A stretch of DNA of 64,000 bases from Laetmonice hystrix (lineage: Eukaryota): positions 11,658,001 through 11,722,000 of the forward strand of contig OZ249436.1 of the NCBI GenBank assembly GCA_965235115.1, read 5' to 3'. The notes under the pieces are model-generated. The model was not told where the DNA came from and ran no database searches. It saw only the letters and a list, made by a program, of their open reading frames with translations. This document shows, piece after piece, positions 27,616 through 60,700 of this stretch. How positions within the stretch are numbered: the stretch's first letter is position 1; every line of letters starts with the position of its first letter. The translations under genes and the position numbers were made by a program.

Positions 27616-27689
27616 TGCTATCTACCCCTATTCCTGAAAAGTTAGAGAAAAATAGAAATTCAAGTATCCTTGGACAGTAGGCTTATACA

Positions 27690-33700: not shown

Positions 33701-36700
33701 AACAAGAAGAACCGACTGAAAGTCTCCATATATCCAGTTTTGAATTCTAAGAAAACGCGACTCAACTTTTGCACACACCACTGCTCTCTAATAGCCACCA
33801 AAATAAAATACTCTACTTACGAAATAAATACTGTTCTTGTTTTACGCAGACTTTGAGTGGGAACGCCAAAAACTGTGGGAGGACATTTTGTCAGAGCTCC
33901 ATCAACAATTTCTGGCATATGGACTGGACCTTGTTTTAGTAGACGCTAACCAGGAATCCGGCGATGATGCTATTTATGATCGACAAACCTTTGAGGAATA
34001 CCTCAAAGAGATCAAAGATTGTCATAGGCTCTCCGTCGGCCCTTTTTTTCTGGTACGCAAGTTTATCATTCGCTTCTCCATTTGTGCGAATTAGACCGCT
34101 CTGCAGGCATTGCCTTTCCCCTTTTTCAATCGGCTTTGTCTTGCGTACGTTATGTGTATTACAATATTACCCTAACACATCTTACATTTGACCTAAACTT
34201 TACATTTGTTGTTAACTCGACTTGGCATGATGTACACCTTACAGTCGTTCCAGAAGCACTGTCATGTAAATTTCTCTGTTTGTGAAGTGTTTCCTTGGCA
34301 ACAAGTATGGACCGGCGCCCCTGCCCGGATACATTGACGAGTCAGAGTACGACAGGGTGAAGGCGGAGGCCTTCAAGGCAGGCAAAGGTAGAGTTTCTCT
34401 GAATACCCTCATTGCCAAGAGGAGTTCGAATCTGTTTTCCATAAGGCTATGGTTTGCGTCTACCCATACTGTGCCTCTGATAAATTACATGTACAAGCAC
34501 TCCACCTTATAATTTACAAGTCAGGAGAAATCTTCAGTTGGAAATTAGTGCCGTCAGCTGACGGCTATGGATGAAATAGACTGATATTGGAAACAAATTT
34601 ATGAGAGATTTTTCAATAAAAATTTCAGACGTCCGATTACTCCAAGACTGGTACATCAAGGACGAGAACGCTGTCCCTCCGGTGTATGTTCTCCAGCCCA
34701 TCTCCAGCAAGTTCTCCCATTATCACTCAAGGTTCACTTCTTTGTTATACTTATCTGGTTCTTGGACCATCCAGGGTCGAGAGAAAAACTGGTGGGAAAC
34801 GTCATGGAGAGCCGATATACAGTCCATACTTCTGGATCAAACAAACAAACATACCGGCAGTAAAACAAACAAACATACATACCAGCAGTCAAACAAACAA
34901 ACATACCAGCAGTCAAACAAACGAGCAAAACGCAGCTCAGGATAAAGCTTAAGTTCAAGCTCAACTTTAATGCTTCTGATTGACTAGGCTGCTGCTACTG
35001 AAATCAGAAGGAAAACTTTAGGTCCCAAAAAATGCAACAGTCTTTAATTGTGTGCATTATATGCGTTACTGCCAGGTATACTTTTCTTGAGTGTACATTA
35101 CAAAAAGTTTCGGATGCCTTCGAAGACGCAAATTTTAATAGAAGCTGTTATGATTTCCCGGGCTGCAGGAATTCGGAGGACGCCGAAATGCGAGAGGCTG
35201 ATCATGAGACATGGCAGAAGACGTTCGCAAGACTTCAGGACATTTTACAACACCCTACATATACCAGTCGCAGTGATCGACACCCGGCTTCCAGCAAGCG
35301 CAGTGCTTTCTTCGCCTCAGGTGATCATGTTGTACCAGCAGGCCGCACAGTTGGCTACAATTGCCTTCCCTTTAAATAGATTACATTTATGACCTTTTCA
35401 TATATCTTGTCTAATAGGTGTAGAACAACAGGTGAACGAGGCATTGGAACTTGATCCACAAGGTTGCTACTGTCTTTTCCGGAACATTGAAGGTAATCCT
35501 AGACAGTAACAAGAGAGCTATTAATAGAGCGCTTTACTTTAACGCTTTCAGACTGGTGAAGTCAGGAAATAGAAATCTGTAATCATGTTTAAACTGTTCA
35601 ACAGAAGTTATTATCGCTGACTTCAGTTGAACGATTGTAACTATTGTTTCCCGACTTGCTGATTCAGATCTAACCAGTTCTTTGTATGTCAGGTTCGAAG
35701 TTATCCCCAGATCATTGACATTGCCCCATGTAATCCCACCTTCATCTTCACCTTGCCTTTGGCGTTTTCGTAAGAACAGTTTTTCACCTACAGGAATAGA
35801 TGTTGAGCACGAGGACGCCTCAAAGTATGTCGACATTTCCAAGGGTTATAGCAGCATCAACAAGGATGCACAGGCTCGGCTGAAATCGTTGCAAGACCGG
35901 ATGAAGTCCAAACTGAACGAGAAGAACTATCAAACATTTGAGGTTCCATGGGCCTCAACAGGCTTCGACCCGATGAGGTACGAGGAGCATGCTGAGTACA
36001 TGGGAAACGTTCAAACGTCTATCATCCTGTGGCTGAGAGAGAAGATAGACAGGTACGCCGAGGATCAAACACAGAAGAGATATTTGAATGAAGAGAAGAG
36101 CAAGCTGCACGAGGAGCTTCTATCTCACTACAACCACTACAGGAGTTTGGTCGTATCACACCTCCAGGGGTTCTCCGACCTGGAGCAGAGACTCCATGAT
36201 GTGGTCAAGGCGAACCAGGAGAGGGTACACCAGATGGTCCTTCTACATGGACCTGAAGGCTGTGGTAAATCGAGCTTTCTGTCCCAGTGGATTAAAAAGA
36301 CAGGGTCCCTGTTAGCCTCAGAGACTGTCTTTCTCTTCAGATACGTGGGGCTGACACCATTCTCCAGCACCCCTGATGAACTGTTGAGGAGTATTTGTAC
36401 ACAACTCAATGTGATTTTGTCGCGGAATGTGAACACCCGGGACCTGGATGAACGCCAGCTTGTTGAACATTATTATGAGCTTGTTGATATTCTATCGGAA
36501 ACCTCAACCAATTACATATTCGTCATTGACGGACTGGATAAACTTAAAGCTGCAGTCGCAGGGACTGAGATGTATTTCTGGGAATGCATATCCAGTAGGT
36601 TACCACGGAATATTCACATGATCACAAGTTTTACAGCCACCCCGTTAAACACACATCTTCTGCATAAACTCATTAACCCTATTGCCTTTGAAAACAACAT

Positions 36701-39700
36701 TCTGGCGATTCCAGTTTTAGACAAGGACTCATTGAATGACATAATCAAGGAGAAGTTTGCCGCTCACCATCGCCAACTGACAGCTGAGCAAGAGGAGGCG
36801 ATCACGACGGCAGTGAAGGCTAAGAGCGTGCCAGTGTATGTACAGATGTTGATACAGGAGGCCCTTACCTGGCCCTCACAGATGATGCTGAACGGCGTCG
36901 GCCTGCCGGGATCGCTGGAGGACGCTGTCAACCAGCGATTTGACCAGCTCGAGGAGAAGTATGGCGAGGTGGTGGTCGGTTGTATCGGCAGGTACCTGTC
37001 GTCTGCCTACTCCGGCTTGACGGAGATGGAAATACTTGACCTCCTGTCCTGTAACAATGATGTCCTGCTCACCCTCTATCAGACAAACATACCTTTTCTT
37101 CTCCGCTTCCCTCATGCACTCTGGATGAAGATCCGAGCTGACCTAGGTGAAGTGACACACGACGTCTTGAACTTATTCTAAAGCACCTTGAGGGTGATTT
37201 TGAAGGGTAGGACTTAAAGCGACAGTCTCGTCCGTTAGACCATCCTCGCAGGCACCTAGTGGCCTATTTGATAACTACGACCATCCTATGCTGTAGCATA
37301 GGAATTGACGTCTATAAATAGCACATCGACCCTTAGGATGCCCCCCCCCCCCCATCGCACAATGCTGAAGGACGAGACTGTCGTTTTAAGACTTTGCTCT
37401 TGATTGGCCTGAATAATAAACTTCCGGTCATCAATCTTATTCGTTCATATCATAGATCTAAACGCTATAAGCTGTTGAACATATTCGATACTATAATGAA
37501 GAGCAGATGTACTGATTCACAAGGCAAGATCTATTATAATGTGTGCCTTGCTACACCTCAAGGAGGAAATGTATTCCAAATACCAATGCTAATGTGACAG
37601 TTTCATTTTTATAGGTATTTTCTTGGACGAATGCTACGTAGACTGCAAAATCGTCCTTAAATGGTCCCACAGCACTGTGGCAACCGCTGCCGCCTACAGG
37701 TACTTCGCCAACACTGAACAGATCAAGAAAAGTCACAGGGACATCGCCGAACTGTTTCTCGAGACGTGGGTGGGAAACAAGCCAATGGTGGTACCTAACC
37801 GTGATATACAGATAATAGACACGGGTTGTCGCTTTGTCATGCAGCAGCCATTGTTGTATAGCGAAACCCGTTACAACCACCGGAGGCTGACAGAACTCTG
37901 GTTTCAGCTGCTACATGCCGGTAAGAATAACCTTGTCACTGCATCCGGAAATTAGAGCTTCGTGATAATCAGTAATAACGCAAGCACATGGAATATGCCA
38001 CATAATTATCTAGCGGTCGCCAGATAATTATGTGGCAGCCGTCAGATAATTGCCGCCAGATAATTATGTTGCGGCCGCCAGATAATTATGTGGCGGCCGC
38101 AATATTAGTATTGTCGCGGAGCGCTATTAGCGACCATTATTCTCGTCAGCACTGGAGAAGATAACTAAAACTGAAGAGTTGCTTTAATAAAGATCATAGA
38201 AGAGGCATCTGCATGCAAAACTGACTGGACATTTCTGCTTTTTTTTATTCAGGTGAAATTGACAAGTTTAAAGAGCACAGTTTCTGCAACTTTGAGTACC
38301 TTCTGGCGAGAATGCACTCGACTTCTGCCCAGAACCTGATCGCGGACTTCAAGACAACGTGCTCCCAGGTTCTCGATGCTGAAGTCGAAATCCTATATCA
38401 GTGTCTCGTGTCAGGAGTCAGTATACTAAGTCACGACCCGTTACAACTTGCCAACGAACTCATCGGCCGTCTACGGCAAGTCAAAGGTAAGCCTAAGTAC
38501 AGCTACTCCCCCCCCCCGCCACCGGTCTTTCGTAGCGATTGGTTGTTTTTTTTTCTGTCAGCATGCTGTGTAGGGGGTTGGATTGAGGATTTTGTGGTTG
38601 TGACTGGGGTACACAGCTGGTGTATCTATAGAAGATCTTGGGCCTCGTGGATGAATGAGAGCGGTAGATCACCGAGTCCGATATGTACATTTACTTTAAT
38701 CACCCGAAAGGCTTTGAAGCTATTTAATTGAATGCCACACCATTCTCCTTAATGCACTGGAGATCGATTGACGACTTTGTCTCAGCGCCAGCTGTCGTTC
38801 AACCCTTGCAGTGCTGACTACAGACTGTCAATATAGTCGGGGCCGCCAGGTACATTTCGCTTTCCTGTAGCTCTACCTTCTGATGATGCGTGGTTTGGTT
38901 AGGGGCCTACCGGTAAGACCTATTCCCCACCCCGGCCACCGGAAAACAGGAAAGAGGTCCATTTATTTCTACATTCTTAACAAGGACCCATGGGCGGGGA
39001 ATGTGTTCACGACCTCTTCCATAACTATTGTCCATGGACGGGGAATGTGTTCACGCTTCTAAGGCCCCCCCCAAAAATATCCCGGTTTCTGGTCCGCGCG
39101 CGCATCACTTTAGATGCCGCGCATCAGTGCTTTTTTTTCTTGCCCTCACCTTGGATGACTGTGAATTGTGCTGCCAGCTAGCGGTAAGGCTTAAAACTAA
39201 CCATTGTTGTAATGGATATTTCATTAACCGACTGCAACGGAAGTGTGTTTGTATTCAAAGCGATGACAGCAAAGGTCATGGTCCTTATCTATGAGTTCAT
39301 TTTACATGATAATTTACCATCTTAGCCAGCTATCACAAAAAAAAAATCGTTAAAAAAACCGCGTCACCGCACCACTTTTGAAATTTTCTAGGGACCAGAA
39401 ACCGGGAATTTTTTTTGCCCTACCTCTTCCACTTAATAACCAGGAGCTCAGTGGCCCAGTTGCTCAGCTCATAACCACAGGGCCTCTCAACCCTCAGTTC
39501 CTCCTCGAGCCGGACGTAAGAAGGGGTGTTAGTTACCTGCCTTAAGGTGTAAGGTCGGTGGTTTCCCCGGAATTGTTCCCGTTTTTTCCATCAGTAAAAC
39601 TGGCCGCTTTAACAGGGCTGTAGCCTGCGGGGGGGGGGGGGGGGGAGCTGCCCCCTGGGATTTCCAGGTTATTTTTACCCACACCCCGGGCCAACTCAAC

Positions 39701-42700
39701 CGGCGCAATGACGCACTATCACGTGGCAGCCCCCCCCCTCCCCCCGCCCCGCGGATTTGGGCCAGGCTACACCCCTGCCGCCTTGCTATGACCCTGGCTG
39801 TTGCAGAGGTGTAGATCTACACCCCCAATCCAAATTTTAAAAACATAACTAGAGCCCATGGACGGGGGAACCGTAACTAGAGCCCATGGACGGGAGAACC
39901 GTAACTAGAGGGGCAGGGGAATGCGTTCATCAATCAAAGACCTTTCGAATGAACCGCGTAGCTCCGCGGCCGTGAGGGGTGATTACTTTTCGCATTGGCA
40001 CATGTCAATCCCCCGAAGCCGAAGCCTGATTAATTTGACGGCTGATTAAGATTACAGATAGGTACTGTAATAGGCCTATAGACGGGTAAGGTAGCTTGCA
40101 CAACCATACAGGCCATACAAACATACATACACAAACATGATGCCCAGACCTCGGGCGGCTCTCGCAAAACATTTGGGAGCCCCACTTCCTGTTGTCTGAC
40201 GTCACGACTCAACCGGGCCGATATCTGCCCGGTTTGTTTGGTATCTAGCACCTGCCTTTCCAATGAGGCAGGGAACCAGCCAGGCGGTCTGCGCGAGAGG
40301 TGATTCCCAACATTCCAAGCCACGTCGTGGAGCTACGGGGTTCGTTCGAAAAGTCTCTACTATCAACCCACCAATCACGTCAAAAGGCGAGAGCGTCGTC
40401 TTACCACGACCAGTGCTGCTACCTAGTGTTAAGAATGGCGACCCTGCACTGCGCTATCGATCACACCCAAAGCCAATGCTTCGGTGGATACGTGCGTTCC
40501 ATTGTTGGACTTTGCTTAAGATTCTAAACCCAAAGGACAAACATGAATAATTAATCAACCACCTTAAATAATCAAGGTACCTGTATTCGCCTGGCGAGTC
40601 TCCTCGGGTGGCAGGCTTGCCACAAGGGACATTGGCTGGTCAGCGGACATAGAGGGTTGTGGGTTGTAGCTCTCGGACACTGATCAATGTTCAGGGCGGT
40701 AACAGGATAGGGTACCGATAGATATCAGTATCAGTATCATTATAAGTAAATTATCGGGGGGAACCCCCATACATAACCGCATTGTTGAGACATTATTCAG
40801 ACGATCCTTTTAGGTCAGATTATTCGGTCACAGTACGGAGTAGGTCTATGTTAAAGCTAGATCTATATGGAATGGCTCTCACTTCAATGGGGTCTATGGG
40901 CAAAAGGGCCAAGTGAAAATAGTAACGTTCACCGCCAGGTAGTACTGTGTCGGAAAACCGAATTCTAATTCCAATTTCCACATACTACTTACACTCCGTT
41001 TTGGCATCGGAAAAATTTCAACATTCACAAGATTACAAAACAGTTCTAAGAGGGGAAGCCTCAATTCAACAACACAACTATAGTACTATAGTACTTTTGC
41101 TGCTATATACTACAACTAGTACTACAACAAATCAACAACTAATTCATTTACTAATTAATACTGCTGCTATCACCACCACCACCACCACCACGACTACACC
41201 ACTGCTGTGACGACAAGAATCCCCCATGGCCGGATCACTCCCACACCATAGCGTTGCGAAAAGGAAAGTCCTTCCACTGGACTATTCGGTCGCCTGCTGA
41301 CTTCTGCCAATTGGATTTGGCTAACCTCGCGAGAGAAAGTTGGAGTATTTATTACATCTGGTTGACACAACTAGGGTGTAGTAGGGGGCCTACATCTCAT
41401 TTCAGTTGTATGTAAACATGATTTACCGATTGTCAACCTCCAAAGCCCTTTTAATACAAACACTTCGGCACTGATACCCATGCTATCGAGTCACCATCTT
41501 CGATACGCGGTAGCATACTTCCACAACATCCAGGCTTAGCATTCCCTTCATCTTCACAGCTCCGTTTGTCGTGGTAGGCATGGCTGATTACATGTCAGAA
41601 GGACTCAGTGGCGTGTAGACAGTGATCAAAGCAAGGTTAGGCCTGTTGTGTGTCATCAAAGATACCAGGTGCCCTTAGTGCTGCGCGTTAACGTCTATGA
41701 TGGTGTCAGTTAGAGGCGCCAGCCATACGTGGAGGTGTTGCGGGCGGGGGTTGGCAGAGCGTCGGTCGAATACTTAGGTGACAAATGATGCATCTAGAGC
41801 TGATGGTTGAAGGGGCTCCGCCAATTAAAAGCCACAAAATCAACACCCTCTCATATTAAACAACATAGATTTACCTGCAATCTCGTTTTGCCATGGCCGG
41901 TTTGCCATGGCAGTGGTACACTCCGCGGACCGTGCTCGGGCGACTGAACTTTTAATTTTCTTACATTTGTTGCCATTATTTGATCGCCATATTTAAATAT
42001 CATGTTGCTATAAGGATGAAAGGTACGTTTCATATTTGGGGGGGGGGGGGGATTTAAGTTTTCTGTGCAAAATTTGGCTGAACCAAAATTTATTTACAAA
42101 CTTGGCATGCTACAAAATAATAGTTTATAATAACAAGAAGGCTGGAGTGTACACTCCGCCATTCTTATTAACAACTAGACACGTTGTGATGATACCACAA
42201 TGGATCCCATCCCCTGGGTGTCCCGTCTGCCATGGTAAAAGTAGGCCCCCCTACGGTTAATTACATGGCTTCTCATTCATGTTCAAGTGGTGTCAATTGA
42301 AAAAGTATGTATGATTTCCTATTCATGTTCAATAGTAGGCCTATAACCATGGCTACAGTACGACCCGTTTAGCAGTTACGGGGCTGTGAAAATCATTAGC
42401 AGCTGCCAGTAACGTCATAATGACGTCATATTACGTCAGTCTACATAATAAATCATGGTGTCAATTGAAAGAGCATGTATGACTTACTATTCGTGTTTAA
42501 TAGTGACTATGGCACTAACTTCAACTATTTACAAGTTATAGCCCTGGGGAAATATGGATGACATCGTTATGACGTCAATCCATTCGGCGTGGGGGGTCCA
42601 GCCAGTAGCTGTTATACGTTGTCCAAGAACTTGAGGTGGTCAGAAACAAAAGGTCTAATACAATGGCCGTCCTATACCATGGCTGTCATATAACATGGCT

Positions 42701-45700
42701 GCATGACTGTACCATGGCCTCATGGCCGTCCTATACCATGGCCTCCCTATATAATGGCACCATGGCCTCTCTATACAATGGATGGTGCGACCTTTGAAAT
42801 TAATTCTACAAAATAATTGCTGGATGTAGTCAGTTGTAACTGTACCATGGGATGTGACACAATGAGGTGTAGTTGCAGGAGGCATGGTCTCCACTGTTAC
42901 TGTTGTTCCACTGAGTGTGGACAGTGTAGAGGTGTCTGCACCAATGTAACAAGTGATCTGTGATCACTTGCTCAGGGCCCCTTTACACTCACGAAGATCG
43001 TTGGGTGACCATTGAGCGATCAAAAATTGGCCCAATTTCTCAGCGATCTCATAAAGCCTCGAAAAAGCCGTTTCTGTGTGAATGTTTGGAAGATCCTTGT
43101 GCACTCTTTGTGTGGTCAGAAATGCAATTTTTGCCAACTTTCATGGCGATCTATAGAGATCTTTGAGCGACTTTGGCGATCATTGAGCGCTCATTGAAAG
43201 ATCCTTGAGAGATCAATGGAAACCAAGCCTCCTGCAGCGACCATTGAGAGTTTGCTGAGAGCTCGTTGTGCGAAGAGAGATCACTGAGAGATTTACGGAG
43301 ATTGCTGAGAGATCAGGTGCGGCCAAGAGAGATTGCAGAGATCACTGAGAGACCAGGAGTGACCACTGAGAGACCAGGAGAGATAGCTAAGGGATCATTG
43401 AGAGTTCCTTCCAGGCGACTAAGCCTCAATGCAGGCTCATCAATCTCTCAAACGGAAATTGGTCGCTCAATGATCTCTCAGCGATCGCGATCTTCGCTAC
43501 GGTCTTTCAATGAACTCTATTGGTCTTTCATCGAACGCTCAGCAATCCCTCACTGATCTCTCAGTCATCTCTACCTTCGGAGTGGAAAAATGTAGCGGTC
43601 ATTAAAAGATCGCTGATCATTGGGAGATCGATAAGCGCTGCTTGAAGGTTCGTTGAGCGTTCGTTGAGAGATCGCTTCCCTTGGCGATCATTGAGCGATT
43701 GTTTTGGACTGTTCAAAACATTGAGGAGACCGTGGCGACTGTGGAGATCGCTGAAAGATCATTGAGAGATCTTGGTGATCGCTGGGTGCTCATTGAAAGA
43801 TCGCTGAGATAATCTGGCCATTTCTTCATCGCTCAACGATCTCTCAGCGATTGCCACCCATGTGTAAAGGGGGTATGTACGGGATATAAGAAATGTTGAT
43901 GTTTCAGTCGTTACAATGTAAGAATATAATTTAATTTGTCCCATGAGACTGAAGGAAATCTTGGGTGTGAAAGCTTTGTGCCATCTTCTGATATCGTTAT
44001 TCGAAGATCCCAGACAAGCTATCACTGACATGTATGTGACCACTACGATAATGAAGGTACTGGAACATTGCTCTATGCCCAAAGGGAGTCTATAGATGCC
44101 ATGCCATAACCACGAGACCTGGGAATTGTTTTTTCTTTAGGAAAGCTAGTAAAAAAACTGATATGGCCAAGAAACGTTACCCATTCTTATATTAATATTT
44201 TATATAGTCAGGGGTAGTTTTTATGTAGAAAAAGTAATATTGTCTTTAATTAATTGCGAATTGCGTCAATGCCATGGAAACTGTGAAAAATACAAGATTT
44301 CTTGTTTAAAATCTAGTTTATAATGTCAGACATAAAGGGGTGGTTAAGTTTTAGTTTTAGTTTGAGTACAAGTATATAGGACTAATTAGGGGCTGGACCC
44401 TATTAGGCGGGGTCACCCGTGACCCCGTGGCCCTCAGAGTCAAAAACACAATATTTCACCATAATATCTTCTACATTGGCAAGTCAGAGCTGTAGGTAAT
44501 TGGTTGCTAAGGAGATTTAATGTTTTCATCACTGTTACTAGGTAACAAGATGGCTTTACTATATCAAGATGCCCATTTAATTCCTTTTTGCCTTCTTATT
44601 ATATTTCAAATCGTTTCATTTAGCTTATATATAATTACATGACTGGTTGTTATGAAAACATAAAAAAGGCAAATTACCGCTTGTTCTCACGACTAACATG
44701 ACTCTAGTGAGCTGATTCCAGTGGGCTATGTGACTATGGTGGCAGTTGCTAGGAGGATCATGTGAATTACTCATCTGTTACTAGGCAACAGAATGTTTTG
44801 GATGCAAACCAAGGTTGTCATAACAATCTATGATAGTATTTTGTCTACTTGGGAAGCAGAAGAGTTCAGCAGAAGGCGTTAATATTGAAATAAAAATGCA
44901 GGTAATGGGATTATATCATTAGTTGCTAAGGAGCTGTAACATTTCAAAGCTGGTTGCTAGGCAACAAGATGGCGCTACCTAAAATTCAATATACATGTAC
45001 TCATTTTACTCCTTTATTGTAGTTTAATGTTATTTCAAGTAGTATAGCTTATGTATATTTAGGAAACCGGTTGCTAAGGAAATATGCAAAAATTAAGTGG
45101 TTGCTATGGATGCAAATTAGGCACTATTCGACCACTCAGATTCTTCTAGACTTTTGATATATTATTCTATGGAAAATTCTGATATTAATGGCGATAAAAT
45201 AATTTCTGTTGCAATTTGTGCTGGGTTGACCATTTTTTTATCATAGAATGACTGGACTGTCATGGCCGTAGTGACTTTTAAACCATGTATGCTATAACTA
45301 TACCGACAAAAAAAGCTTTCCAAAACATCAAATGAAATGACCTTGAACCAAGTTGGAGATGACCTTGACCTTTAATTCAAGGTCATGTCCCTCTTGCTTG
45401 GCGCAGAGCCTAAAACCTGTACCTTATCTGCCGAGTCAGGCACCAGGCCGATAATCTTGTAGGATTGGTCTCATTTGAAAAATATCCAGTATAGTCTGCA
45501 TGGTTGCCATGGTAACCATCCACAGAGAGACTATATATTTCTAGGGAAACATGTATATTTTCCATAAATATATTACACTGCCTTATAAAACCTTTTGTGT
45601 TTACCCAAATTCATCATGCACATCTTTCGTTGCCAGGGGATTTGCCATAGTTACCCATGCTTGATGGCCAAACCTGATGTCATGGCGACTGGCAGGCTCC

Positions 45701-48700
45701 GTCACCTTCTGAATGTTATCAAACTTATAGAATTGGGCCTCAAATTTTTTAATGAGATGAAACGTTCTCATGTTATAACTAAATTTTAGCCTTTTTAAAC
45801 GGATGTTTTGGTTCAAATGACCTTGACCTTGGGGTCAAAGGTCAACAAATTATATTTTTTCTGGAAAGCCCCTTCGGACGTCTAATAATATACCAATTTG
45901 GAGATTCATAGCTTTATTAAGTTTAGAGTGAGGGGGAAATATGTTTATTTTTTAGGAACCCCTATTTTTGTGTGACCTTTGACCTTTGACCCCTGCGTTC
46001 GTGACCTTAACACAAGAATAGAGCTTGACCACCACCCTAGCAGAACGCAGGATATTGCATAGAATAATTTTGACATGGTGGTTGCTTTTGCTCTCTCCGG
46101 TAGAACGAAATTGATATTTAGGCCACTTTTCCAGGTTCAGCCTCCCTACTAATAGGCCTATTGCCGGGTCTCTGCCATTTTCGACACTGCCCACTACTAC
46201 CGGGACTAAGCCAACTCTGTGGCAGTCTTAACTTTCCAGTCTAAATTTGGGTCTTAGGCCGAGGGATTTGCCACGAAGAAACGTTTCTGCACGGACACGG
46301 ATCAGTGCGTGGCTCGTGCCGGGTCCTAACTGTGACTAAGAAACCGGCCCCTGGTTATTCTCCAGACGGATATTAAACGGGGACGACATTTGTCGCATGT
46401 TGTTGTCAGGTCCTAGTCATGATAGGACCTGATTGATTTCTTGGTTAGACCTATAATGTGTACAATGATGAGAACTTGGCGTTATCTCATTATGACATGT
46501 CATGATTCAATGACCTGTCACGCTATCATTCTATCAACCTCCGGGTGTGTAATCAGTGTCTTTGACCTCAGTAAACTACCAGTTATAACGTGTCACAGCA
46601 AAGGCCAATCCGGATCGCTGGTTTCTGAAACTACTAAACTTTGATTCTGGTCGCCTTTCAGACTGAAGAAAAAATAATATTTTGTGTTTAATTGTCACAG
46701 ATGGGTCAAATCCCTAGCTCTGGTCTTTAGTTATTATATGAAACTATACTTTGATTCTAGTCGCCTTTCAGACCGAAGAAAAATGTAGACTTTTTAAAAT
46801 TTAATTTCGTCAACAACGGCCCTTAGTGGCATTTTCCTCAGTGCTTAGCCAACTATAGGCCTAGTAATGTCCGCACCATGCAGCCATCAACACCTGTAGG
46901 TCAGAATCGGTTGAACGAACGCCTCAGGTGCAGTGATCTGATATGACCCAACTCGTTTTACATTAACATGACATGCAGGCAAGTGCACATCAGCGTCAAT
47001 ACGCGTTCTATGGAGGTTGGAGGGGGAGGGGGTAGGAAGGATGTGCCTGGTGTGATGACAACAGGTATAGGGTAGGAGTACAGGTTGTCGTAAGGTCGTT
47101 GGTGACATATACCACTTACCCGTTCAAAGTGCTCAGATCGCTCTACACTCTCTGACACATGCTTACATGTATAACCCGCCAACATGATAGAAAACGTCAT
47201 GTAATCCTGTGGACTCTTGGCCGCTGCCCATGTGGACGGAGCTACACTTGGTAAGCTCGGGACAAGTTTGAGGTCGCGTGATCGCGTATCTACAGCCTGT
47301 GAATGGAGCGGTTGATGCCAGGTGTGGGGGATGAACGCCGTGACAGGTGTAACGAACTGCCTCGGTTTTCGTTACTCTCCGGGAGCCATTAAACGGAGGC
47401 GAACCAACGCCCACCTGAACCTGGGCAACGGTACAAGATACGACACCACACCCACATAGCGGTCCAAGAGGTATCATAACCGATTGAGATATCAATCTTG
47501 AGTCAGTTCTCATCGCTTCGCGCAAGGACTCGCCACTGATCAAATTGATTGCTAACCTGTCTACGTTGGGCTGGTTCTCCTGCTCGAAATGAACGATATA
47601 TCATTCTGAAACGATCAGGATTATGTAATGAAGACTACGTTGGCGGTATGTAGCTTTCAGCATGGTGGATGGGGTGGTTCAATGCGGCAAGGATGTGGAG
47701 TGGTGGTCCCGCAAGTATATATCACTCCGGTGTTGTTGGGGGTGTAGAACCCGCCAGTGGAGCTCACTCCCAGAGTGGTGGTGGTGTAGAACCCGCCAGT
47801 GGAGCTCACTCCCAGAGTGGTGGTGGTGTAGAACCCGCCAGTGGAGCTCACTCCCAGAGTGGTGGTGGTGTAGAACCCGCCAGTGGAGCTCTCTCCCAGA
47901 GTGGTGGTGGTGTAGGTCCCGTCAGTAGATATCACTCCCGGAGTGGCAGTGGTGTAGAACCCGCCAGTGGAGATCACCATGCCTTGGTATACACTACGTA
48001 CATTTGACCTCTTTGATCAGGCGAAAAAAGGGGCAACAAAATCTTTAAAAAGTGATGATTCTAAGCAGAAAGTAAGAAGTAAACAATGCAGATTAAGGAA
48101 AACAGACAGTATGAAAGATGGTGAAAAGGATGGAGTTATTAAGGCCTTACAAAATGAGGTCATCATCAGAGACGCAACCGATTCTTTGAAAGCTGAAAAA
48201 AATAACAAGACCTTTATCACAACTGAAACAAGCCCAAGTGAAAGTCTGAAAAACAATCAGACAGATAAGTTGTTATTTGAGGATGGCAAGGAGGTTAAGA
48301 ATCATACTGAACCAGAAGTAATACTCACAGACAATATGAAGCTTCCGCCTGGGAAAAAGACTATTGGTAGCAAAGGAAAGCCTTGGAAGAATCCATATTC
48401 TAGAAGGACAGGGGACTATTTGATATCATGTCTAAAACGGCATGAGGCGAGCAGACGTCGAAGCCGCACAGGCAGGCTGCTACCACGTACCGACATAACG
48501 CAAGTTGGAAATCTAATCAGAATTTCCACAACGGAATTAGTCCCAGAGGAGAATTTTAAGGACATGGAAAGAGAGTTAGATTCAAAGGGTAAGTCGTATG
48601 AACGTAAAATTTGTAGTCACTATACATCTTTCTGGAGGTGAAAATCAGTAGGTAGGTAATTAAGTAAGTAAGTATGTAAGTAAGTAAGTAAATACTAAGC

Positions 48701-51700
48701 AGACTATAGACTAAGCTGTCTATCCTTGGACATCATTTTGTATTAATGAGAGACCCTTAAAAAATTGACAACTTATAGGTATTGTGAATTTATTCGTATT
48801 CGGTTAATTTTAGATATTTTATTGGGCAGGATATTCCTCTCGGGATCCCATCTCTTGCCGCACATTAAAATGTAATGCAATCTTTCCAAGTAAAATTTAT
48901 GATACCCTCTTCTCAGACTGAATGGATTTTTTTCAAGAGAATATCAATGTCCTGCTCTATTCTAGTCTCTTCTAGTTGTTCACCCTGCTGACGTAACCCG
49001 CTTACATGGAGGCATGTACGAGGGTTAGCTCTTAAAATTCCAGATTTTTTTTTGATCGCTGACGAAACTGTGACTCTGGCTGGAAGGATTGATTTATTGC
49101 AAGGTTACTTCTCAAGTGTACTATCCATTTGTAGTTTACCAGACCCCCCCCCCCCCGACAGTATTTATTGACTAAAATGAAGGAAGATTTAGACATTGAC
49201 ATGGCTGTGCAAAACGTATAAGCGGCTGTCAAAGGAAGCATTAAACTTTCAAACCATTTAGAAAAGACTGATCCTTAATGGGATCCTTCTGGGCTGGCGC
49301 CAGAGTTGTTATAGCAAGGTATGACTACAAGTAAGCTTCTATGTCAATTTGAATGCATGTATTCAGCTTTTTTAGAGAAGTTCAGGTTTACACAAGAACG
49401 TACACCGGCTGACATGTGAGGTGTATTCAAACAGTGGATGAATGATTCTGCTGGCATATCATTGATTAGCGACATGAAAATTTGTAGAATCAACACACTG
49501 ATAAATATGACAGATGACATTTCCTAATTATGGATAAACCATAATGAGGTAACTAAATAATGGAAGCACATTCATTAGACTAATAACCATAACCCTTATG
49601 TCATCATACTACTCATTACCACCCTTATTTCATTACAATATTCAACAATACCCTTAGGCCTACTTCATTATACATGTACCACATACCATAACCCTATTTC
49701 ATTATACCACTCACCACCACCCTTATTTCTCTATACTACTTGCCATAACCCATATTTAATTTTTTCCACTCCCCACCACCCTTATTTCTATATACTACTT
49801 GCCATAACCATTATTTCATTATACTACTCACTATCACCCTTATTTCTATATACTACTTGCCTTAACCCATATTTCATTATACCACTCACCACCACCCTTA
49901 TACTACTTGCCATAACCCATATCTCATTATACCACTCACCATCACCCTTATTTCTACCACTCACCACCACCCTTATTTCTATATACTACTTGCCATAACC
50001 TCATTATACCCCTCACCGCCACCCTTATTTCTATATACTACTTGCCATAACCCATATTTCATTATACCACTCCCCACCACCCTTATTTCTATATACTACT
50101 TACCACAACCCATCTTTCATTATACCACTCACCACCACCCTTATTTCTATATACTACTTGCCATAACCCATATTTTATTATACCACTCCCCACCACCCTT
50201 ATTTCTATATACTACTTGGCATAACCCATATTCCATTATACCACTCAACGCCAACCTTATATTATACTACTTGCCATAACCCATATTTCATTATGCCACT
50301 CACCGCCACCCTTATTTCTATATACTACTTGCCATAACCCATATTTCATTTTTTCCACCCCCACCACCCTTATTTCTATATACTACTTGCCATAACCCAT
50401 ATTTCATTATACCACTCCCCACCACCCTTATTTCTATATACTACTTGGCATAACCCATATTCCATTATACCACTCAACGCCAACCTTATATTATACTACT
50501 TGCCATAACCCATATTTCATTATACCACTCACCACCACCCTTATACTACTTGCCATAACCCATATTTCATTATACCACTCACCGCCACCCTTATTTCTAT
50601 ATACTACTTGCTATAACTCATATTTCATTATACCACTCACCGCCACCCTTATTTCTATATACTACTTGCCATAACCCATATTTCATTATACCACTCACCG
50701 CCACCCTTATTTCTATATACTACTTGCCATAACCCATCTTGCATTATACCACTCACCACCACCCTTATTTCTATATACTACTTACCATAACCCATCTTTC
50801 ATTATACCACTCACCACCACCCTTATTTCTATATACTACTTGCCATAACCAATATTTTATTATACCACTCACCACCACCCTTATTTCTATATATACTACT
50901 TGCCATAACCCATATTTCATTATACCACTCACCACCACCCTTATTTCTATATACTCCTTGCCATAACCCATCTTTCATTATACCACTCACCGCCACCCTT
51001 ATTTCTATATACTACTTGCCATAACCCATATTTCATTATACCACTCCCCACCACCCTTATTTTTATATACTACTTGCCATAACCCATATTTCATTATGCC
51101 ACTCACCGCCACCCTTATTTCTATATACTACTTGCCATAACCCATCTTTCATTACACTACTTACAAAAAAATCCTTATTTCGTTCTACCACTTACCATCG
51201 CCCTGATTGCCTATTTGAAACCGTCTTTCAGATCACTACCCCGAACACATAGAGCAAATTGTACAGCAGTGCATGGAATGGTGCGACTCTTACAATCTTC
51301 CACTTATCGTGCCATTGTCATCATGGTTACCAGACCCCAGGATACCATTAGTGCAATTCATCGATTGTGCAGAAACGCCCACAAAACTCTGTCCGACGAG
51401 AAACGGCCAGCATGTTTTTTGTGCATCAACCAATGATATTAATATGTACCACCTGCCTTCAAAGAAACTTATCAAGACGTTAACAGGTAAGCTGACAACG
51501 AATGAAACATCTGTTTGATCGCCAGGGTTTTTATCTATGATGAATACCACTAACTGGAAACCAAGCATACTGAAACACATGTAGTGATAAAGTGGGTTTC
51601 ATATATCTTGTTTGAAGAGGAGGTAACCGTTTTAGATAACCAACCCAGGCGCGGATCCAGGAGGGCTGGGGGCACGTGCCCCCTAGACCCCCAAAAGGGG

Positions 51701-54700
51701 CCGTCCCCGTTCTATGCTTCAGGCCCTTTTTACTATTACGATTCCGACTGTGCCCCCCGAAGCCACTCCCTTCTGACTGTGCCCCCCCTAGGACACCCCT
51801 TCTGGATCCGCCCCTACAACTTGTGTATTTGTGGTTGTTCTCGTCTGCGTTTTGTTTCTGACTTTTGTTCTTTCTGCTCTTCTTCTTTGTCTTTTTAATG
51901 AAATGTAAAAAGAGAATTTGCTTGGATTCAATGCCTCCATGAATGAGTTTTGCCTTGTTCTCACTGCAGTTCCTAAGTCAACCCATAACATTCAGAACAT
52001 ACTTTTTGTGCAGGTCATAGAGGTATCGTGACCTGCCTGCAGATGGCGTACAACAACCGCTTCCTTGTCACAGGATCGCTGGATTCCACGTTACGGGTCT
52101 GGGATGTGACCAAAGGCAAAACCCTTCAAACCATCAGGTTTTCTTTTACTTCGTAACTCGAATATTCAATGTCCGGCTGTGAATTGCTAATAGCTTCGTT
52201 TTATTCAATTCAAAAGGTAACACGTTGCTTCAAGCAGATTATAGTGAATGTAGGCCTATTATCGCAAAATATTCTGTCTACATGTACGTGGACAAATACT
52301 TGTCGCCTGTCCACGTCATGTAGTAGCATATCTTTACTTGTAATACACAGGGAGCACTCGGACAGCATTCTGTGCCTGACCTTGACCCACAGCGATGAGG
52401 CGGTGATAACGGGATCCAAAGACCGCTCCATAAATGTCATCTCCTTGACGACAGGCGAAGTGATACATAGGAAAAAGGAGCACCAAGGTGCAATAATTGC
52501 CGTGATACTTAACACCACTGACACCATCCTTGTCTCGGGTAGGCAATTCCTTGTCTGGATAGACTTAATCATTCATGTATACGTCATGTTAAAATGGTAT
52601 TCAGTTGAAGACAGGTAACTGTGAGAATAAACCACTGATGGCCCTACAAGCAAGGGACAGACTGTCCGTCGCCGGTCGAACTGTCCGACGCGCTTGTTGA
52701 AACACCCTTCTGGATTCCTTGGTTATGCAGGTCCTAGGTCATCAACATCGTGGTATCAGGCAATATAATTAAGAAAATACAAATGGTTTAGGATTAAGGT
52801 TACGATTAGGAATAGGATTATGAAGAAATATTTAAATAATACAACATCACGGACTTAAAGTCGTAGGAATGCAGGTCCGTCGGATTCCCGATTGGTATCG
52901 ATGCTGAGGGCAACGATGAACATCTTCCGGATTCGCGGATTTCAACTTTTTTGAGACTAAAATTTGTGTTAAAATCCCACTTCCATACCACCAAAATGCG
53001 CTAAATTTGTGTCAGATTCATAAGTTTCCGCGATCTGTTGGAACTACGCAGCAGGGCGGTAGAACATGGAGTGGTGATGTGGTCGAGCCTCGTCACAGGC
53101 GGCTTCCTTTCACACCGGCGGAGTGATAGTTACACTCTATATGGGAAGGCTTCGCGGGGGCGGGGGAGGGGGCGTCGGCTAGCACTCGAAACAGAATACC
53201 GACCGGAAATTTTCTGGTTGGTGGGGGCGGAAATATCTCGTGCAGCTTGGTTATGGAACTCGATCCTCACCTGTCCTCATCGAACATCGTCGGGGTGGGA
53301 GGGGAGAGAGAGGGAGGGAGGGACGGACGGATAGACAGAGACACACAGAGAGGGACAGACAGGGACAGAGACAGAGACAGAGAGACAAATAGAGACAGAG
53401 ACACAGACAGGGACAGAGAGACAGACAGACAAATAGAGACTAACAGACAGAGACAGGGACAGAGACAGAGACAGACAGAGAAATAAAGACACAGACAGGG
53501 ACAGAGACAGAGATACAGACAAATAGAGACAAAGAGACACAGACAGGGACAGACAGGGACAGAGACAGAGAGACAGATAAAGAGACTAAGAGACAGACGT
53601 GCATCAGTTAGATTATCCATGTGCTGGTGATTTCATGTTCTATTTTCATGCAGCGTCTGCCGACCACACGGTGAAACTGTGGGACATGGACGACATGGGT
53701 CTACTGAGCGTCTTTGAGGAAGGCTTGGCCAGTTCGATCACATGCATGACACTTTCATGTGACAACACTTTTCTTTTACTAGGTAGGTTGCACGTTCCCA
53801 GCTTCATTACCCTCTTACTGCCCCGCTAATTACGCTTATTAGAACAAAGTAGCATTCGATGAGCAGACGATTTTCGAAAACCTTTCAGACGGGCATTTAA
53901 AAATTCTAATTTTCGTACTCCCGTTAAGACCTACAGTGTCAACAAGTATCAATAGTAGTTCCTCGATTTTTTACAGGCTGTGAAGATGAGACGATAAGGG
54001 TAAAATCGTTTACAACCGGAAGTGAAATTCATCGATTGGAAGGCCACAAGGGAAAGGTATACGGGTCCATATATCAAAGGGTATCTTTATAACGATTAAT
54101 ATAGGCATGGCTATATTTAGTTTAGAGAACGTACAACAAACAGGGGCCTTAATGACATGCGCTGTGTGCCGCTGCAGATAGAGAGCATGACGTTGTCCAA
54201 CGACTGTCACCACGCTGCAGTCGGATCGTCTGACGCTAACATTTATATCTACAACTTCCGAACGGCCGAACTGCTCGACGTCTATACTAGCCATACCCAT
54301 GCCGTAACGTCTCTCTGCACGTCATGGAACCAACACTTCATCATCAGTGCCAGTAAGGTACGAACAAAACCCACTTCACAGCCCCTTCTCTCGGTCAAAG
54401 GCTTTATCTAAATTAGTTCTTGACACTAGAGGCTATTATTGAATAAGGTTTCAACTTGAAGAAATATTTATAGTATAAGCTATGGGGTTAGGCCTATTAC
54501 TCAAGATTACTGTATATTTCATGCAAAACTGCCCCCCCCCCCCCAAAAAAAAGAAGTGCATTTATCTGTTCTTGATCGTTACTGTTTGTTTCCACGAGAA
54601 ATCATGAAGAATTGATATCAATATACATGTGACAGAATTGAAGATTGACGTTATGACAATGTCAGGTTCCGTGGGCAGTGATTGCTGTTGTGTGTTTACA

Positions 54701-57700
54701 GGACAAGGTGTGTGTATGGACCTTCTATCGTCGTCACACACACACCATACTCTCAGACGAGCACACAAAGGCCATAAACTGCATCAACATTGCTCGAGAT
54801 GGCAAGATGGCCGTCACTGGTAAGTGATCCCCCAATCAATGACGTCTACCTTTGTCCAGCGCCATCGGTCGACCTACTTGTCTGTGACCTTCACCAACGC
54901 ATTACCTTACATATCAAAGTGGTAACACCCAAGTACTCTGCCCTCAGCCATAGGAAACTTCTGGTCGTCAAAGGCTATTTTTGAAGACGACAATAAGAAT
55001 GGCGTTTTGTCATGTAAATTCCCCTTGCATATTATGATAAAGTAGTTCCTACACAACGTCTCTGAGACACAGACACAGTCGGTGATGACGTGTGGTCTGT
55101 TTCTCCGACATCTGCGACGTTTCTATTCATACTTTCCAAGTTCACGTGTGCGTAATGACGTTTTATTTGGTACAACCATGCATAGCCAAACGCCATACCG
55201 AATTTCTGGTCTCAGTAGATCAGCCTTTTTGAGGTTTTGATGACATGGGGCATGAATAAAAGTTATTGAGGGGACAATTTTGGTGTCCAACATCCACTCG
55301 ACATCGCAGCCCCCTTCCCGGCTTCTTTCCACCAAAACATGGTACAGGTTCACCACAGGGACATAACACCTACAGAGAGTCATACCAGTAACCATACCAT
55401 TCGTCTTGCTTCACTTGTATGGCTCGCATGTTAAGGCTATTTTCACATACAAACAATGTTGTGAAACTGCTTCGGCTGATAAATGGTAATCTGTACGTAT
55501 TTGATAACCACAGGGTCTAAGGACAAGACTATAAGAATCTGGGATCTAGAGGAATGCTGGCCCAACCGCCGTAATCCTCTCCTACAAATGATTAAGGCGG
55601 ATGACAACAGGAATGCCTTCAAGAGATCTGAGTTAAACGGGAAGGAGATCAGCACGGAGAGTCTTGATGATGAGGGGGAGGTGGGTTCTGCTGAACCCGA
55701 CGACACCTCAAGGAGGGAGTCCTTAGCAATGGACAACGATGAGGTGAAATCAATCCTTTCAATCCACGGAAGGAAGGGATCGAACGTGTCCCACGTCAGA
55801 TGGGATTCCCCAGTGTCCCGCAACGACCAGAGTCCTCCTATGTCCCCTGGGAGTCCTCGCCCTCCGAGACCAGCTGATACTGGTACACACACCGGTCCTT
55901 CCCCTAGCGGCACTGCCCCTACCGGCACTGCCCCCACAGGTACCGCCACCACAGGCCCTGCCCTCACAGGTACAGCCCCGACAGGCACTGTCCCCACTGC
56001 CTCGCCAGACCGACCGAGTACTGAACCTGCGCCCACGAAAGCCACTGATGTCGACATGAAACCTCCACCATTGTCCACGCAGGACAACTCCAAATCGGGT
56101 CCGACATCAGATTCTGAAGTTTCCGCCAGAAAGCAGACGGTTAGCCCAGAATTGGAAAGCCAAGAGGTCCATGGGAGCGAGAGGAGACCGCGACGACCGT
56201 CGTTCGTTTTCAGACGAGGTTCTTTGTGGCGGGAATCCGGGGGCGATGACCCTTTCAATGACCTGGCCCTGGGCGTGATCCCTGACCGACTCCGGAGGCA
56301 ATCTCACAAATCGGGCTGGGTGTCCCGAGCCACGGCGGCCACGTCCTGTGTGGTGCAGGCCATTGACTACATCATGGATGCAGACAACGTTTCTGGTGCA
56401 GGCGCCGAATCCAGCATAACCGAATGTAATAAACACAAAACTTCTCACTGTGTTCCAGTACCGTTTTATTTCAGTAGGAGCATGGAGTCACTGAATAGCC
56501 AGCTGTTTCTCCTATACCATACACTATACTACACAGGAGCAATCAAGGGATCATTTTTTATTGATTTATTATATTTCTCGCACCATCGATGCATGTACAC
56601 GATCAGCATGACTTGAAGATATTGCAAAATGCAATAACTTGCCTCAAACTAAGTCGTAGTGTAATTCACGAGTATGCCTTACCTATATAGTGATGGTATA
56701 CATGTACTTTGTACAAACATTAATATATATCCTCACTTATTTACCTTGTTCACAAAATGTTGTATGTAACGGCCGGCTAAAGCTTAAAAAAGAGCCAAAT
56801 AACTGCATGGCAAAGGAGGACATATCAGAATGGTTATTCCGTCCACACACGGCACCCATGCGATTTACGGCACTTAAAACAGTTAAAGTGCTTTAAAAAA
56901 GGCATGGGAAACGTCACTGCATGAGAGCCAAGTCAGTTTTTGGTGTCACCGTTTTTGCATAATAATCCTGCCCAGAATGATGCTAGAATAAGCTGAGTAA
57001 GACTTTCCTTGAATAAGTTTTAACGCATCAATGTCTGCTATAGAGTATTTTTTGTTACATAATTAGATGTTAATTTTTGTATTCTCTTTGTGTTTAAGGG
57101 GATAGGCTTTCATTACAATCCAGCTAGGATGTTTTATCTACCTCCCACAATGAAATACCTATTTAACACATTCGTTGTATTTGGAGCAAAACCGCCTGTT
57201 TTGAATGTTGACCGATGTATTGCAGGTGGAAGTGACCATGTGGTTAAACTGTGGAACCTAGACATCTGTGATTTCTCCGCTGACCTGGCTGGTCACGAGG
57301 CGCCCGTCACGAGCGTGGCACTGGCAGACGACGAGGCGTTTGTCGTGTCGGGATCAGAAGACAAGACGGTCAAGGTCTGGTCCATCATGATGGGTTGTGT
57401 GATCACCGACTACAAGGTCAGTCCAATCCCTTCACTCCACATTAACACGCCTAAGGGCGGAGCCGGGAATTTAGAAATCTACCGACGCAATGAGAATTGT
57501 AGCGGGGTCTGCTTGTTGTTTGGGACAGATGGACAAGCTCCCAGATTCGCCATGTGCCAGAATAGCGGCATGCATCAGGGAGAACATTACTGCTGTTTAC
57601 TCATAGCATGTGTTAAAGGAACTAAGATTATAAGAATTCAGAGCCCAGATCTGAAGATTGCGGTCGAGCGTCTTTAATGTGGGGTTAACGTGTGTGGATT

Positions 57701-60700
57701 ACAAAATGAGGAATATAATATGCTCATTTACTTAACACCCTTACATACTGTGTTACATATAACCTGTCATTGAAATGTGCCTTGACTTCGAAAATAGACC
57801 GGTAAGGGTATATTTCTAGGGCGTATGTATCAGTGAAACACAGTGGTGCAATGTATGTGTTTACCCCCTTCTGAACGCATAAGAAGAGAGCATTTACTTT
57901 CTGAAGGCTTCAAAAGAGTTCTGTGGTCTGTGATCATGAAAGAAACGAACGCGTGCTGTGACGCGTCAAGTCTGCGTGTCTTGTGTGGCGCCGTTAAACA
58001 GTTAGTTCGGAACTTCTGTGGACAACTGACACGTTCAACGCCTAAAGCTGGGGGTTATTTCAAAGAATGAAGTTCAGCCTGTATGACAGTCAGTCGATGG
58101 GGCTTTGGTAATATCGTCAATTGGGGCAGCGTTAGGATTGGTGGCATTAAGCGCTTAGGTATCCAACTTATATAGACATTGCCCCTTTCTTTTCTGTTTT
58201 TTTTCTGTATCCAGTCTGTTAGGAGGTATTGAACCAACTTTCATCAATGACTCAGTGAAACGGGGGTGGGGTGGGGTGGGGTGGGGTGGGGTGGGGTGGG
58301 GGTAAAATATAACTGGGTGATTTTGTGTAGGTTTTACTGACTGTCTCATGCTTCGGTGAACCGGAGAAAATCACCCAGTTCACAAATTCATAGAAAGGAT
58401 ACAAGTTTTTACATTTTTAAAATGAATTGCTTCTTGATATGGGTTCCAGGAACACAACAGCACCATATCCTTGGTGTTTGTTCTGTCGGACAACCAGCGT
58501 GTCATGTCGGTTGAGGAAGACGGATTCATCAAGTTATGGCGGGCAGAAAATGGAGAAACTCTGCTATCCTTAGACGGCCCCACTGCCATGCTCAGCATCG
58601 CTCCCAACTGCCAGTATGCTGTCTCGGGCGAAGGGGACAATGAGTAAGTGCAGGGATAATACGTGGGGAGTTAGATTGTATATGGATGGACTTTGGTGGC
58701 ATCTTGGAGCGCAGAATCACTACTTCATATTATGTACAATATTGTAATTGAAACCTCAATGTTTATTTTGTAATGTTACTCATCGTATCTTCGGGGTCAA
58801 TATCTTTACGGAAAGTCATGCAAATACGGTCAACGCAATTACCGTAAACCAACTTCATGTGCACACTACTATAGGCCTGCCTCAATATGAAGATGGTTTA
58901 TTTCTCCGGCTAGTTCTAACAAACATTTTGTTCAGAGAAGGCCTTGCACAATGTCGAATTATCGTACAGAATGAAGACGTGGCTAGTTGAGGATGGTGTG
59001 GTCGTGAAGGATATTATGCACACAGAGCGGATCACCTGTGTGGCCTACTCGACCGACTCGCAGTATGTCGTCACCGGGTCAGCCGACATGTCGCTCAAAG
59101 TATGGGAGGCTGCCACTGGAAAACTCACACAGGTCAGCCAAGCACCATATGGGCATAGAGTCTATGGTATAAAATAACATTTTATTTACGTTTCTTGAGG
59201 AGCAATCTAATATTGATTGATCATTAATGGGACGTAGGCCTACGCATGATTACAAGAGCTGACACAAAATAAAATTCATTGTGATTGGTTAATAAAGTCA
59301 ACAATATCTTATTACGTCACGTATCTATAGCCTAATGGTGATATTGTCTGCTAGAAAAAAAAACACAGCTCCAATAGAACGTGTCCGAATGAATATAAAA
59401 CTTTCACGTGATGTGGAACAGGTGCTAGTGGAACACGAAGACACCGTCAGTTGTGTGGCTGTCACCGATAGCAACCGTCACGTCGTGTCTGGTTCCCATG
59501 ACAACTGTCTGTTGGTGTGGAGCCTGACAACTGGTCTGGTGGAGCACCGGCTGCAGGGCCACCTCGACCACATCACTGTCGTCAGGGTGACTGCCGACGG
59601 AACGGTCGCTGTCTCCGGTGAGCTACAGTAGTCAGTTAGTTACGTACCTACCTTTGAAGATCAGGTCTTTGATGTTCATGTTTGACAGATAGGGAGGTTG
59701 GAAGCCTTAGTGGAATGATGGTGAAAACGCCATGAATCAAACGAATTCACTTTCACGACTCCCTCCTCAACAATATTTGTTAAGATTTCCGTCGTGCAAT
59801 CGGTCAGTTCTTTTTGTGCCCTGTCATATTTAGGTCTATGTATACCTATATCTAACACCAGCACATGCTCCTTTGTCCCTTGCATCGAAGTAGTTCAGTG
59901 GATCCCCTCATCGAGGGATATAATTACCAGGTGTAAGGACGTGTACAAACCCGAAGAGTGGGTCAATACAACAAAGGACTTAGGCCTACGATGTCCTGTT
60001 GTATTTTAGCTGCCCTATATTACGGCCCTGATCGTAGTAGGCTAGTCTGTCGGCCCGGTAGGCAGCTATAGGCTCACATTGAAATCGTCTATATTAAAAG
60101 GCTCCAAGGATGGGACGTTGCGGGTGTGGAATATTGCGCATGGCACTTTGATCACGACCTTTGACCTTCACACGAGCGTGGAGGATTTTCTAATCACGGA
60201 GAACGGGCTCCACCTGGTGGTGAAGATCGAGAAGAGCGTTCACGTGCCGTTACTCTGTCTCCACAACAGTCCCGCTGGCGAGGTGAAGTCTCAAAGTCAG
60301 ATTTCCATCCAGATGCCAGGAGGTAAGACAACACCGATTCTGTATACAACCTAATAACAGTGATACGGATCTGCTCGAGAAATTCGCCATGTTTTGCTTT
60401 CTTTCTCCTTCACAGTGAACCCGGTGCTACCTCTGAAGCCGCGCATGCCAATGAACTTCCGGCCATCTTCTATATTTCCTGTGCCAACTCGTAACAGACA
60501 AGACCGTGCCTCAGTTTCTACAATCCCGGAGATTATTAAGGTCAGTTCCGAGCAGGAAATTCAGTCCACAAAACACAGTCAACCCGACCTGAGTCGTGAA
60601 CATTAATTAGGCCTACTTACCCATAATTGTGCAGAGGCATAAACGATTGGCATACCTTTCACTTTTCATAAGATATGGACTTGCAAAGGTTATTTCTGTG

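Follow-up and report, generated by a model that had tools for sequence, protein, structure and literature searches.

The 610-nt open frame at positions 47979 to 48588 (+ strand) of the window, by which we mean the entire 64,000-nt stretch of DNA analyzed here, is very probably an alternative first coding exon of an NWD-type STAND gene, giving rise to a predicted isoform that lacks the NACHT domain. The explanation that we favor overall, with a confidence somewhat above even, combines an old exon of this kind with a short product that would serve as a re-wired membrane adaptor. A promoter within the 12.7-kb intron of the host gene would start a transcript that is translated from the ATG at 47979 and joined by a phase-1 splice onto position 51232, and an upstream promoter would yield the 1697-aa full-length protein through the join of 38486 to 51232. 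We infer the internal promoter, the transcript, the junction in RNA, prenylation of the product, its partners and any competition between the two forms from the genomic sequence, from homologous proteins and from the published systems discussed below.

The host gene comprises 23 exons in the window. Its full-length model was obtained by splicing + strand exons between 33475 and 60877 into one open frame of 1697 codons, and the 12.7-kb intron splits the NACHT half of this gene from the WD40 half. Upstream of the intron, six exons (33475 to 35492) encode a putative DUF4062/TeTIR-like N-terminal domain recognized by alignment to paralogous loci, followed by the NACHT and winged-helix exon (35794 to 37146) and by two exons of the helical domain (37615 to 37920 and 38253 to 38486), the second of which ends in the phase-1 donor used for the full-length join. 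Neither the N-terminal domain nor the NACHT and winged-helix exon would be present in the short isoform. Downstream of the intron, the common acceptor exon (51232 to 51486) encodes the last helix of the helical domain, a linker and the start of the WD40 region. The WD40 exons (52014 to 60322) are common to both isoforms, and the last two exons (60416 to 60877) encode a basic tail ending in CTLL, which we take to be a CaaX-type prenylation motif.

Pfam matches were obtained for the NACHT ATPase (PF05729, 29.4 bits against a cut-off of 26.7) and for the NWD1-like winged helix that follows it and runs into the next exon (PF25469, 53.6 bits, E 2.7e-14, above cut-off). Likewise, 9 of the 11 downstream exons scanned matched WD40 or beta-propeller families. 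No direct match to PF13271 was detected at the N terminus when it was scanned exon by exon. The spliced N terminus, however, could be aligned with 6 of 9 paralogous loci, 8 of which had been chosen through a DUF4062 search. The best alignment (32% identity over 158 aa, E 2e-18) was to L035, whose own DUF4062 match is below threshold, while two loci above the threshold aligned only weakly (L037, E 0.031; L040, E 0.018). A Glu is found where the alignment places the catalytic residue, and there is no RWG motif. Overall, as judged from sequence, the predicted layout is that of the TeTIR/DUF4062-NACHT-WD40 (NWD-type STAND) family.

The NACHT exon has 21 additional matches in the genome. Several NACHT-WD40 paralogues (L023 and L025 to L029, on contigs C21, C30, C18, C12 and C6) consist of single open frames of 1083 to 1499 aa and are possibly retrocopies or products of intron loss. 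In six ORFs homologous to the exon at 51232 (51 to 84% identity), similarity sets in at one and the same place, so that the intron boundary at 51231 is common to them as well.

The sequence context of the hidden exon is that of a start codon followed by a strong donor. The motif ACCATG places the start at 47979, preceded by an in-frame TAG (47955 to 47957) in a stop-to-stop frame of 47958 to 48641, and the exon holds 203 codons plus one nucleotide. It closes at a G/gtaagt donor (48589 to 48594) of phase 1, which scored 8.65 and ranked 4th among the 662 GT sites of the intron with a matrix built on the 22 introns of this gene itself. The acceptor at 51231 is also of phase 1, and splicing 47979-48588 onto 51232 yields an uninterrupted 979-aa protein with CTLL at its C terminus. 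All of these elements had been reported in the first-pass annotation and are present as described. Its estimate of about 979 aa holds if the exon at 55514 to 56425 is skipped; with that exon included, the model grows to 1283 aa. Its description of the product as WD40-only is correct in that NACHT is lost and the WD40 repeats and CaaX tail are kept, but the final helix of the helical domain would stay, together with the linker behind it. The predicted short product would likewise have no winged helix and would lack the greater part of the helical domain.

The exon is single copy in the genome at both the protein and the DNA level, apart from an AGTA microsatellite behind the donor, and no second match to 47000-48620 was found anywhere in the genome. 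An ATG-initiated frame of at least 203 codons arose in only 1 of 400 introns simulated with a second-order Markov model. The exon is purine-rich (62%), with a GC3 of 0.37 compared with 0.60 in the remainder of the gene. Among the variants listed (three runs, one sample), a single one lies within the exon, a substitution at 48160 that changes Val61 to Ala. The three read runs cover intronic sequence evenly and were taken as DNA; as all three derive from one sample, they provide no independent support for the exon.

Homologous proteins were detected in other assemblies. P0007 is 45% identical across the whole peptide (E 2.5e-34) and was the one match among 138 candidate proteins of similar length. 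A profile of the exon peptide and P0007 matched three of 1.84 billion proteins, namely P0007, P0010 (E 3e-7) and P0011 (E 5e-7). P0012 is a cluster mate of P0010, so that the four homologues form three clusters, and P0010/P0012 and P0011 share 22 to 26% identity with the exon peptide. Conversely, the exon was the best genome match of both P0010 (E 4.8e-5) and P0011 (E 1.8e-6). The homologues are gene calls, and because each runs beyond the donor position into unrelated sequence, they appear to have been called on unspliced DNA. None of 1,241 longer candidates contained the exon peptide, which is weak evidence, and no annotated spliced isoform was found among them. Scans of metagenome contigs confirmed none of 596 and none of 56 candidates.

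In one relative, the exon homologue and the host gene probably lie together. P0001 is an 84%-identical orthologue of the exon at 51232, and P0007 and P0001 each lie on one ENA contig of 240159 nt, which we read as the same contig. Synteny with the NWD gene thus refers to this relative only and rests on the matching length; no link of P0010, P0012 or P0011 to an NWD gene was established here.

Conservation is concentrated in two blocks. The N-terminal motif M[PA]WY.[LV]R..D (residues 1 to 13, 47979 to 48017) is identical at 9 of 13 positions in P0007, 5 in P0010, 5 in P0012 and 7 in P0011, and the best motif matches of P0010 and of P0011 were not reached in any of 2,000 shuffles each. A variable, charged and probably disordered linker follows (residues 14 to 133, 48018 to 48377; pLDDT below 50), with 38 (P0007), 8 (P0010), 9 (P0012) and 15 (P0011) identities over 120 positions and a length of 89 to 120 residues across homologues; the alignments cover 89 to 110 of its residues. 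The second block, of about 70 residues (48378 to 48588), comprises an NPY motif, an SCLK helix, a basic loop, a beta-hairpin and an acidic end, and residues 134 to 204 show 49 of 71 identities with P0007, 25 each with P0010 and P0012, and 26 with P0011. The RRRSR patch singled out in the first-pass annotation is conserved in its basic character, as part of this loop, but not in its letters. P0010 and P0012 differ by four changes that all fall in the linker (p 0.08), too weak a signal to carry weight.

The limits of the conserved stretch coincide with those of the exon. The start Met is invariant in all five sequences, with P0011 carrying another in-frame Met 12 residues upstream. At the other end, conservation closes at the Gly that spans the donor in 4 of 4 homologues, and past this Gly none of 15 residues is identical in P0007. 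If the Gly is assumed to be encoded by GGT, the residues that follow in P0007 force GTAA[AG]T as the donor sequence and those in P0010 force GTGA[AG]A, and P0011 is compatible with a consensus donor. Conservation bounded by an invariant Met and a donor is what one would expect of a first coding exon, and the homologues point to an exon that is highly likely to be real and under long-term selection. The frame is open in all four homologous proteins found, so that no frame disruption was encountered, and with start Met and donor position also conserved, the NACHT-less structural reading of the first-pass annotation is strongly supported by sequence comparison.

The replacement N terminus would consist of a docking motif and a helix-hairpin block carried on a flexible linker. 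The model of the whole exon peptide had a mean pLDDT of 40. When the C-terminal block was modeled alone, the mean pLDDT rose to 60, and the model suggests with modest confidence a helix (residues 16 to 31 of the block), a basic loop and a beta-hairpin (strands 44 to 47 and 50 to 53). No Pfam family matched the exon peptide at an E value of 10 or below, Foldseek returned no match to the structure model at an E value of 0.001 or below, and the best VIA-align Z score was only 2.2, which does not allow a fold assignment. ESM Atlas likewise gave no usable match to the block, and PDB sequence searches with the exon peptide returned nothing meaningful.

By analogy with known systems, the short protein would retain the WD40 repeats and CaaX tail and thereby meet the same membrane and the same ligands as the full-length protein, while having neither the nucleotide switch nor the TIR-like effector. 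The new N terminus would then route the partners of the sensor to a different output. We consider the chances of this adaptor mechanism to be evenly balanced. Wherever both forms are expressed, the short form would, as a by-product of this role, also compete with the full-length switch. In the mouse, a fragment of Nwd1 that consists only of the WD40 part is reported to go to the ER on its own (PMC11897295). A point against the favored explanation is that the shared portion of the short protein begins within the helical domain, with one helix deprived of its usual neighbors.

The same exon and isoform could alternatively yield a product that acts mainly as a decoy or brake in trans, soaking up ligand or clamping the NACHT domain of the full-length form, which we regard as unlikely. 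It would fit with the Apaf-1 WD40 propellers, which bind ligand and keep the ATPase locked (PMC5856089; 10.64898/2026.05.01.722283), with the short NOD2 isoform, which acts as an endogenous inhibitor (PMC5536018), and with the WD40 exons and CaaX tail being common to both isoforms. However, a pure sink needs no conserved N terminus, yet two blocks persist at 22 to 26% identity, which favors the adaptor over a pure decoy. This conservation suggests that the new N terminus has a function of its own beyond ligand sequestering. Furthermore, low or absent NADase activity is reported for human NWD1 and NWD2 in three preprints (10.64898/2026.05.01.722283 among them), so that a death output to be braked is doubtful.

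A split of the locus is improbable; in that case, an independent WD40-CaaX gene would have this exon as its only first exon, and the NACHT half would close with a terminal exon of its own inside the gap. The 12.7-kb gap does contain strong unused acceptors (46701 and 46135) and AATAAA sites, but the donor at 38486 has the same phase as the acceptor at 51231, and joining them gives an uninterrupted frame of 1697 aa. Six paralogues without introns, taken from eight paralogous loci because they have single frames above 1000 aa, were compared with the joined sequence, and all six could be aligned through the junction with no insertion and a gap of one residue at most. As the junction falls inside a helical region that is continuous and uninterrupted in these paralogues, the full-length join is supported and a cassette of 200 residues is disfavored.

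Such a cassette would be entered in frame at the phase-1 AG at 47967 and would insert about 207 residues into the full-length protein, a possibility that we rate as slightly more remote than a split locus. The first-pass annotation had dismissed a cassette on the grounds of phase. This applies to the acceptor at 48020, which is of phase 0 and produces a frameshift with 21 stops when joined to the exon ending at 38486, but the AG at 47967, weak as it is, had been overlooked. The latter join is open, and P0011 has 12 open codons upstream of its motif. Against this, the AG at 47967 has a score of -1.8 (rank 408 of 669), whereas none of the 22 real acceptors of the gene falls below -1.1 in a leave-one-out comparison, and it belongs to the final copy of a tandem repeat. 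All 5 sequences share the Met, and the insert would break the helical domain. A chance open frame, a transposon remnant or a dead exon is very improbable despite the purine-rich composition and low GC3, since a frame of this length is rare in simulations, the sequence is single copy, no match to a transposon protein came up in the Pfam, PDB-sequence and fold searches, and an open frame conserved block by block in four homologous proteins already contradicts it.

For the favored alternative first exon, the sequence upstream of the ATG offers candidates for a leader and a promoter. A 42-bp tandem repeat of 5.7 copies (47737 to 47977, + strand) abuts the ATG, contains no ATG itself and is a candidate 5' UTR; the weak AG at 47967 lies within it. 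A TATA-like hexamer (47716 to 47721, + strand) is a weak promoter candidate recognized from its sequence. It lies 3' of every upstream ATG, and a leader beginning there would consist of the ATG-free repeat. The hexamer may also be a degenerate copy of the repeat unit. The CpG observed/expected ratio of 46801-47600 ranked 43rd among 316 windows and is not distinctive. In a different frame, the repeat can be read from ATGs at 47669 and 47693 (47654 to 48007, + strand) across the start codon, so that a transcript initiated ahead of these ATGs would carry an upstream ORF overlapping the start.

High-copy repeat sequence with a read depth of hundreds to thousands occupies 44000-46430, and the sequence is unique from there through the exon. 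Outside the tandem repeat, read depth was flat at approximately 25 to 70 over 46431-48487. The end of the high-copy sequence near 46430 bounds the candidate promoter region. An old mobile element may conceivably have supplied the promoter. On the other side of the exon, a tandem array of 20 copies of a 58-bp unit (49686 to 51162) ends about 70 nt before the acceptor at 51231. An upstream mini-exon, with an ATG at 47230 and a phase-0 donor at 47250 leading to the acceptor at 48020, was considered and fits in phase. It was rejected as the main form because run X2 carries a variant at 47235 that makes its second codon a stop, and its use would delete 13 residues that are among the best conserved. 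In addition, Gln14, from which the 48020 acceptor arises, is not conserved and is Thr in P0007.

Previous research has shown that internal promoters remove effector domains from NLR proteins. In human NAIP, intragenic starts produce N-terminally truncated proteins without effector, NAIP-Alu among them (PMC2685007), and in this respect the predicted isoform of a STAND gene is similar. In contrast, NAIP-Alu keeps its NBD and LRRs, initiates at an internal in-frame ATG and uses an Alu promoter (PMC2685007), whereas the isoform predicted here would lose the ATPase as well and gain a dedicated and conserved coding exon of 203 residues. The NBD would be missing, since every NACHT exon is located upstream of this one. 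Promoter isoforms of CIITA and an alternative first exon of NOD2 likewise change the N termini of NLRs, and NOD2-S is able to inhibit the full-length receptor (PMC5536018). However, the CIITA and NOD2 promoter isoforms keep NACHT, unlike the short isoform here, and NOD2-S retains the effector end and loses the sensor, making it a mirror image of the predicted product (PMC5536018).

The predicted layout of the full-length product, with its matches to NACHT, HTH_NWD1 and WD40 and its aligned Glu, agrees with the TeTIR (DUF4062, NIR)-NACHT-WD40 type of NWD1, NWD2 and TEP1 (10.64898/2026.09.21.753143). This family is also treated in two further preprints (10.64898/2026.05.01.722283 and 10.64898/2026.09.04.749371) and includes C. 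elegans QUI-1 (PMC8871372). Compared with this type, the full-length protein here has no RWG motif, and its tail ends in CaaX. The closest counterpart to the short form is the engineered Nwd1-C, in which the WD40 half is expressed alone and reaches a membrane compartment, the ER; however, this is a laboratory deletion construct without a new N terminus (PMC11897295). The literature searched, in which subscription journals and preprint supplements were incompletely represented, yielded no naturally occurring WD40 isoform of an NWD gene that lacks the NACHT. The principle of an internal promoter or alternative first exon in an NLR gene is thus already known, while the loss of the ATPase together with the gain of a conserved module was not found described there.

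More tentatively, the locus could be a two-promoter STAND gene that has long been kept in an invertebrate lineage, in which the signaling half is exchanged for a bipartite module while sensor and anchor stay. The short form would then set the threshold of, or redirect, the TIR-like NADase switch, and the helix-hairpin domain would replace the helical domain. NWD-type STAND proteins have only lately been recognized as carriers of TIR-like NADase domains. If the isoform is real, a conserved sensor-side product would be a tool for finding ligands and for deciding if the WD40 half works in trans or serves a purpose of its own. The exon also defines a small, unannotated protein module, represented by three clusters among 1.84 billion representatives and without a family match. 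Modules of this kind would be dropped by surveys restricted to the longest isoform, and one published survey retained only the longest isoform per gene.

Additional coding features were observed in the window. The optional exon at 55514 to 56425 (+ strand) is phase 1 at both ends and has a weak donor (score 2.6). It opens like the next WD blade, in parallel to the exon at 57226, and then becomes Pro/Thr/Gly-rich and of low complexity. Its frame stays open as far as a stop at 56616, and an AATAAA at 56428 shares nucleotides with the donor at 56425. The stretch of 55514-56616 may be a cassette of 304 aa or an alternative last exon, which would cost the protein its remaining WD40 repeats and the CaaX tail. 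Divergently from the NWD gene, a Pro/Gly/Tyr/Gln-rich exon with a 24-bp repeat starts at a Met on the - strand (27277 to 27621). It has no Pfam match and presumably resembles the N termini of LITAF-like membrane proteins. At 13817 to 14254 on the + strand lies a frame coding for a bZIP protein of the small Maf type (PF03131, E 4.8e-29).
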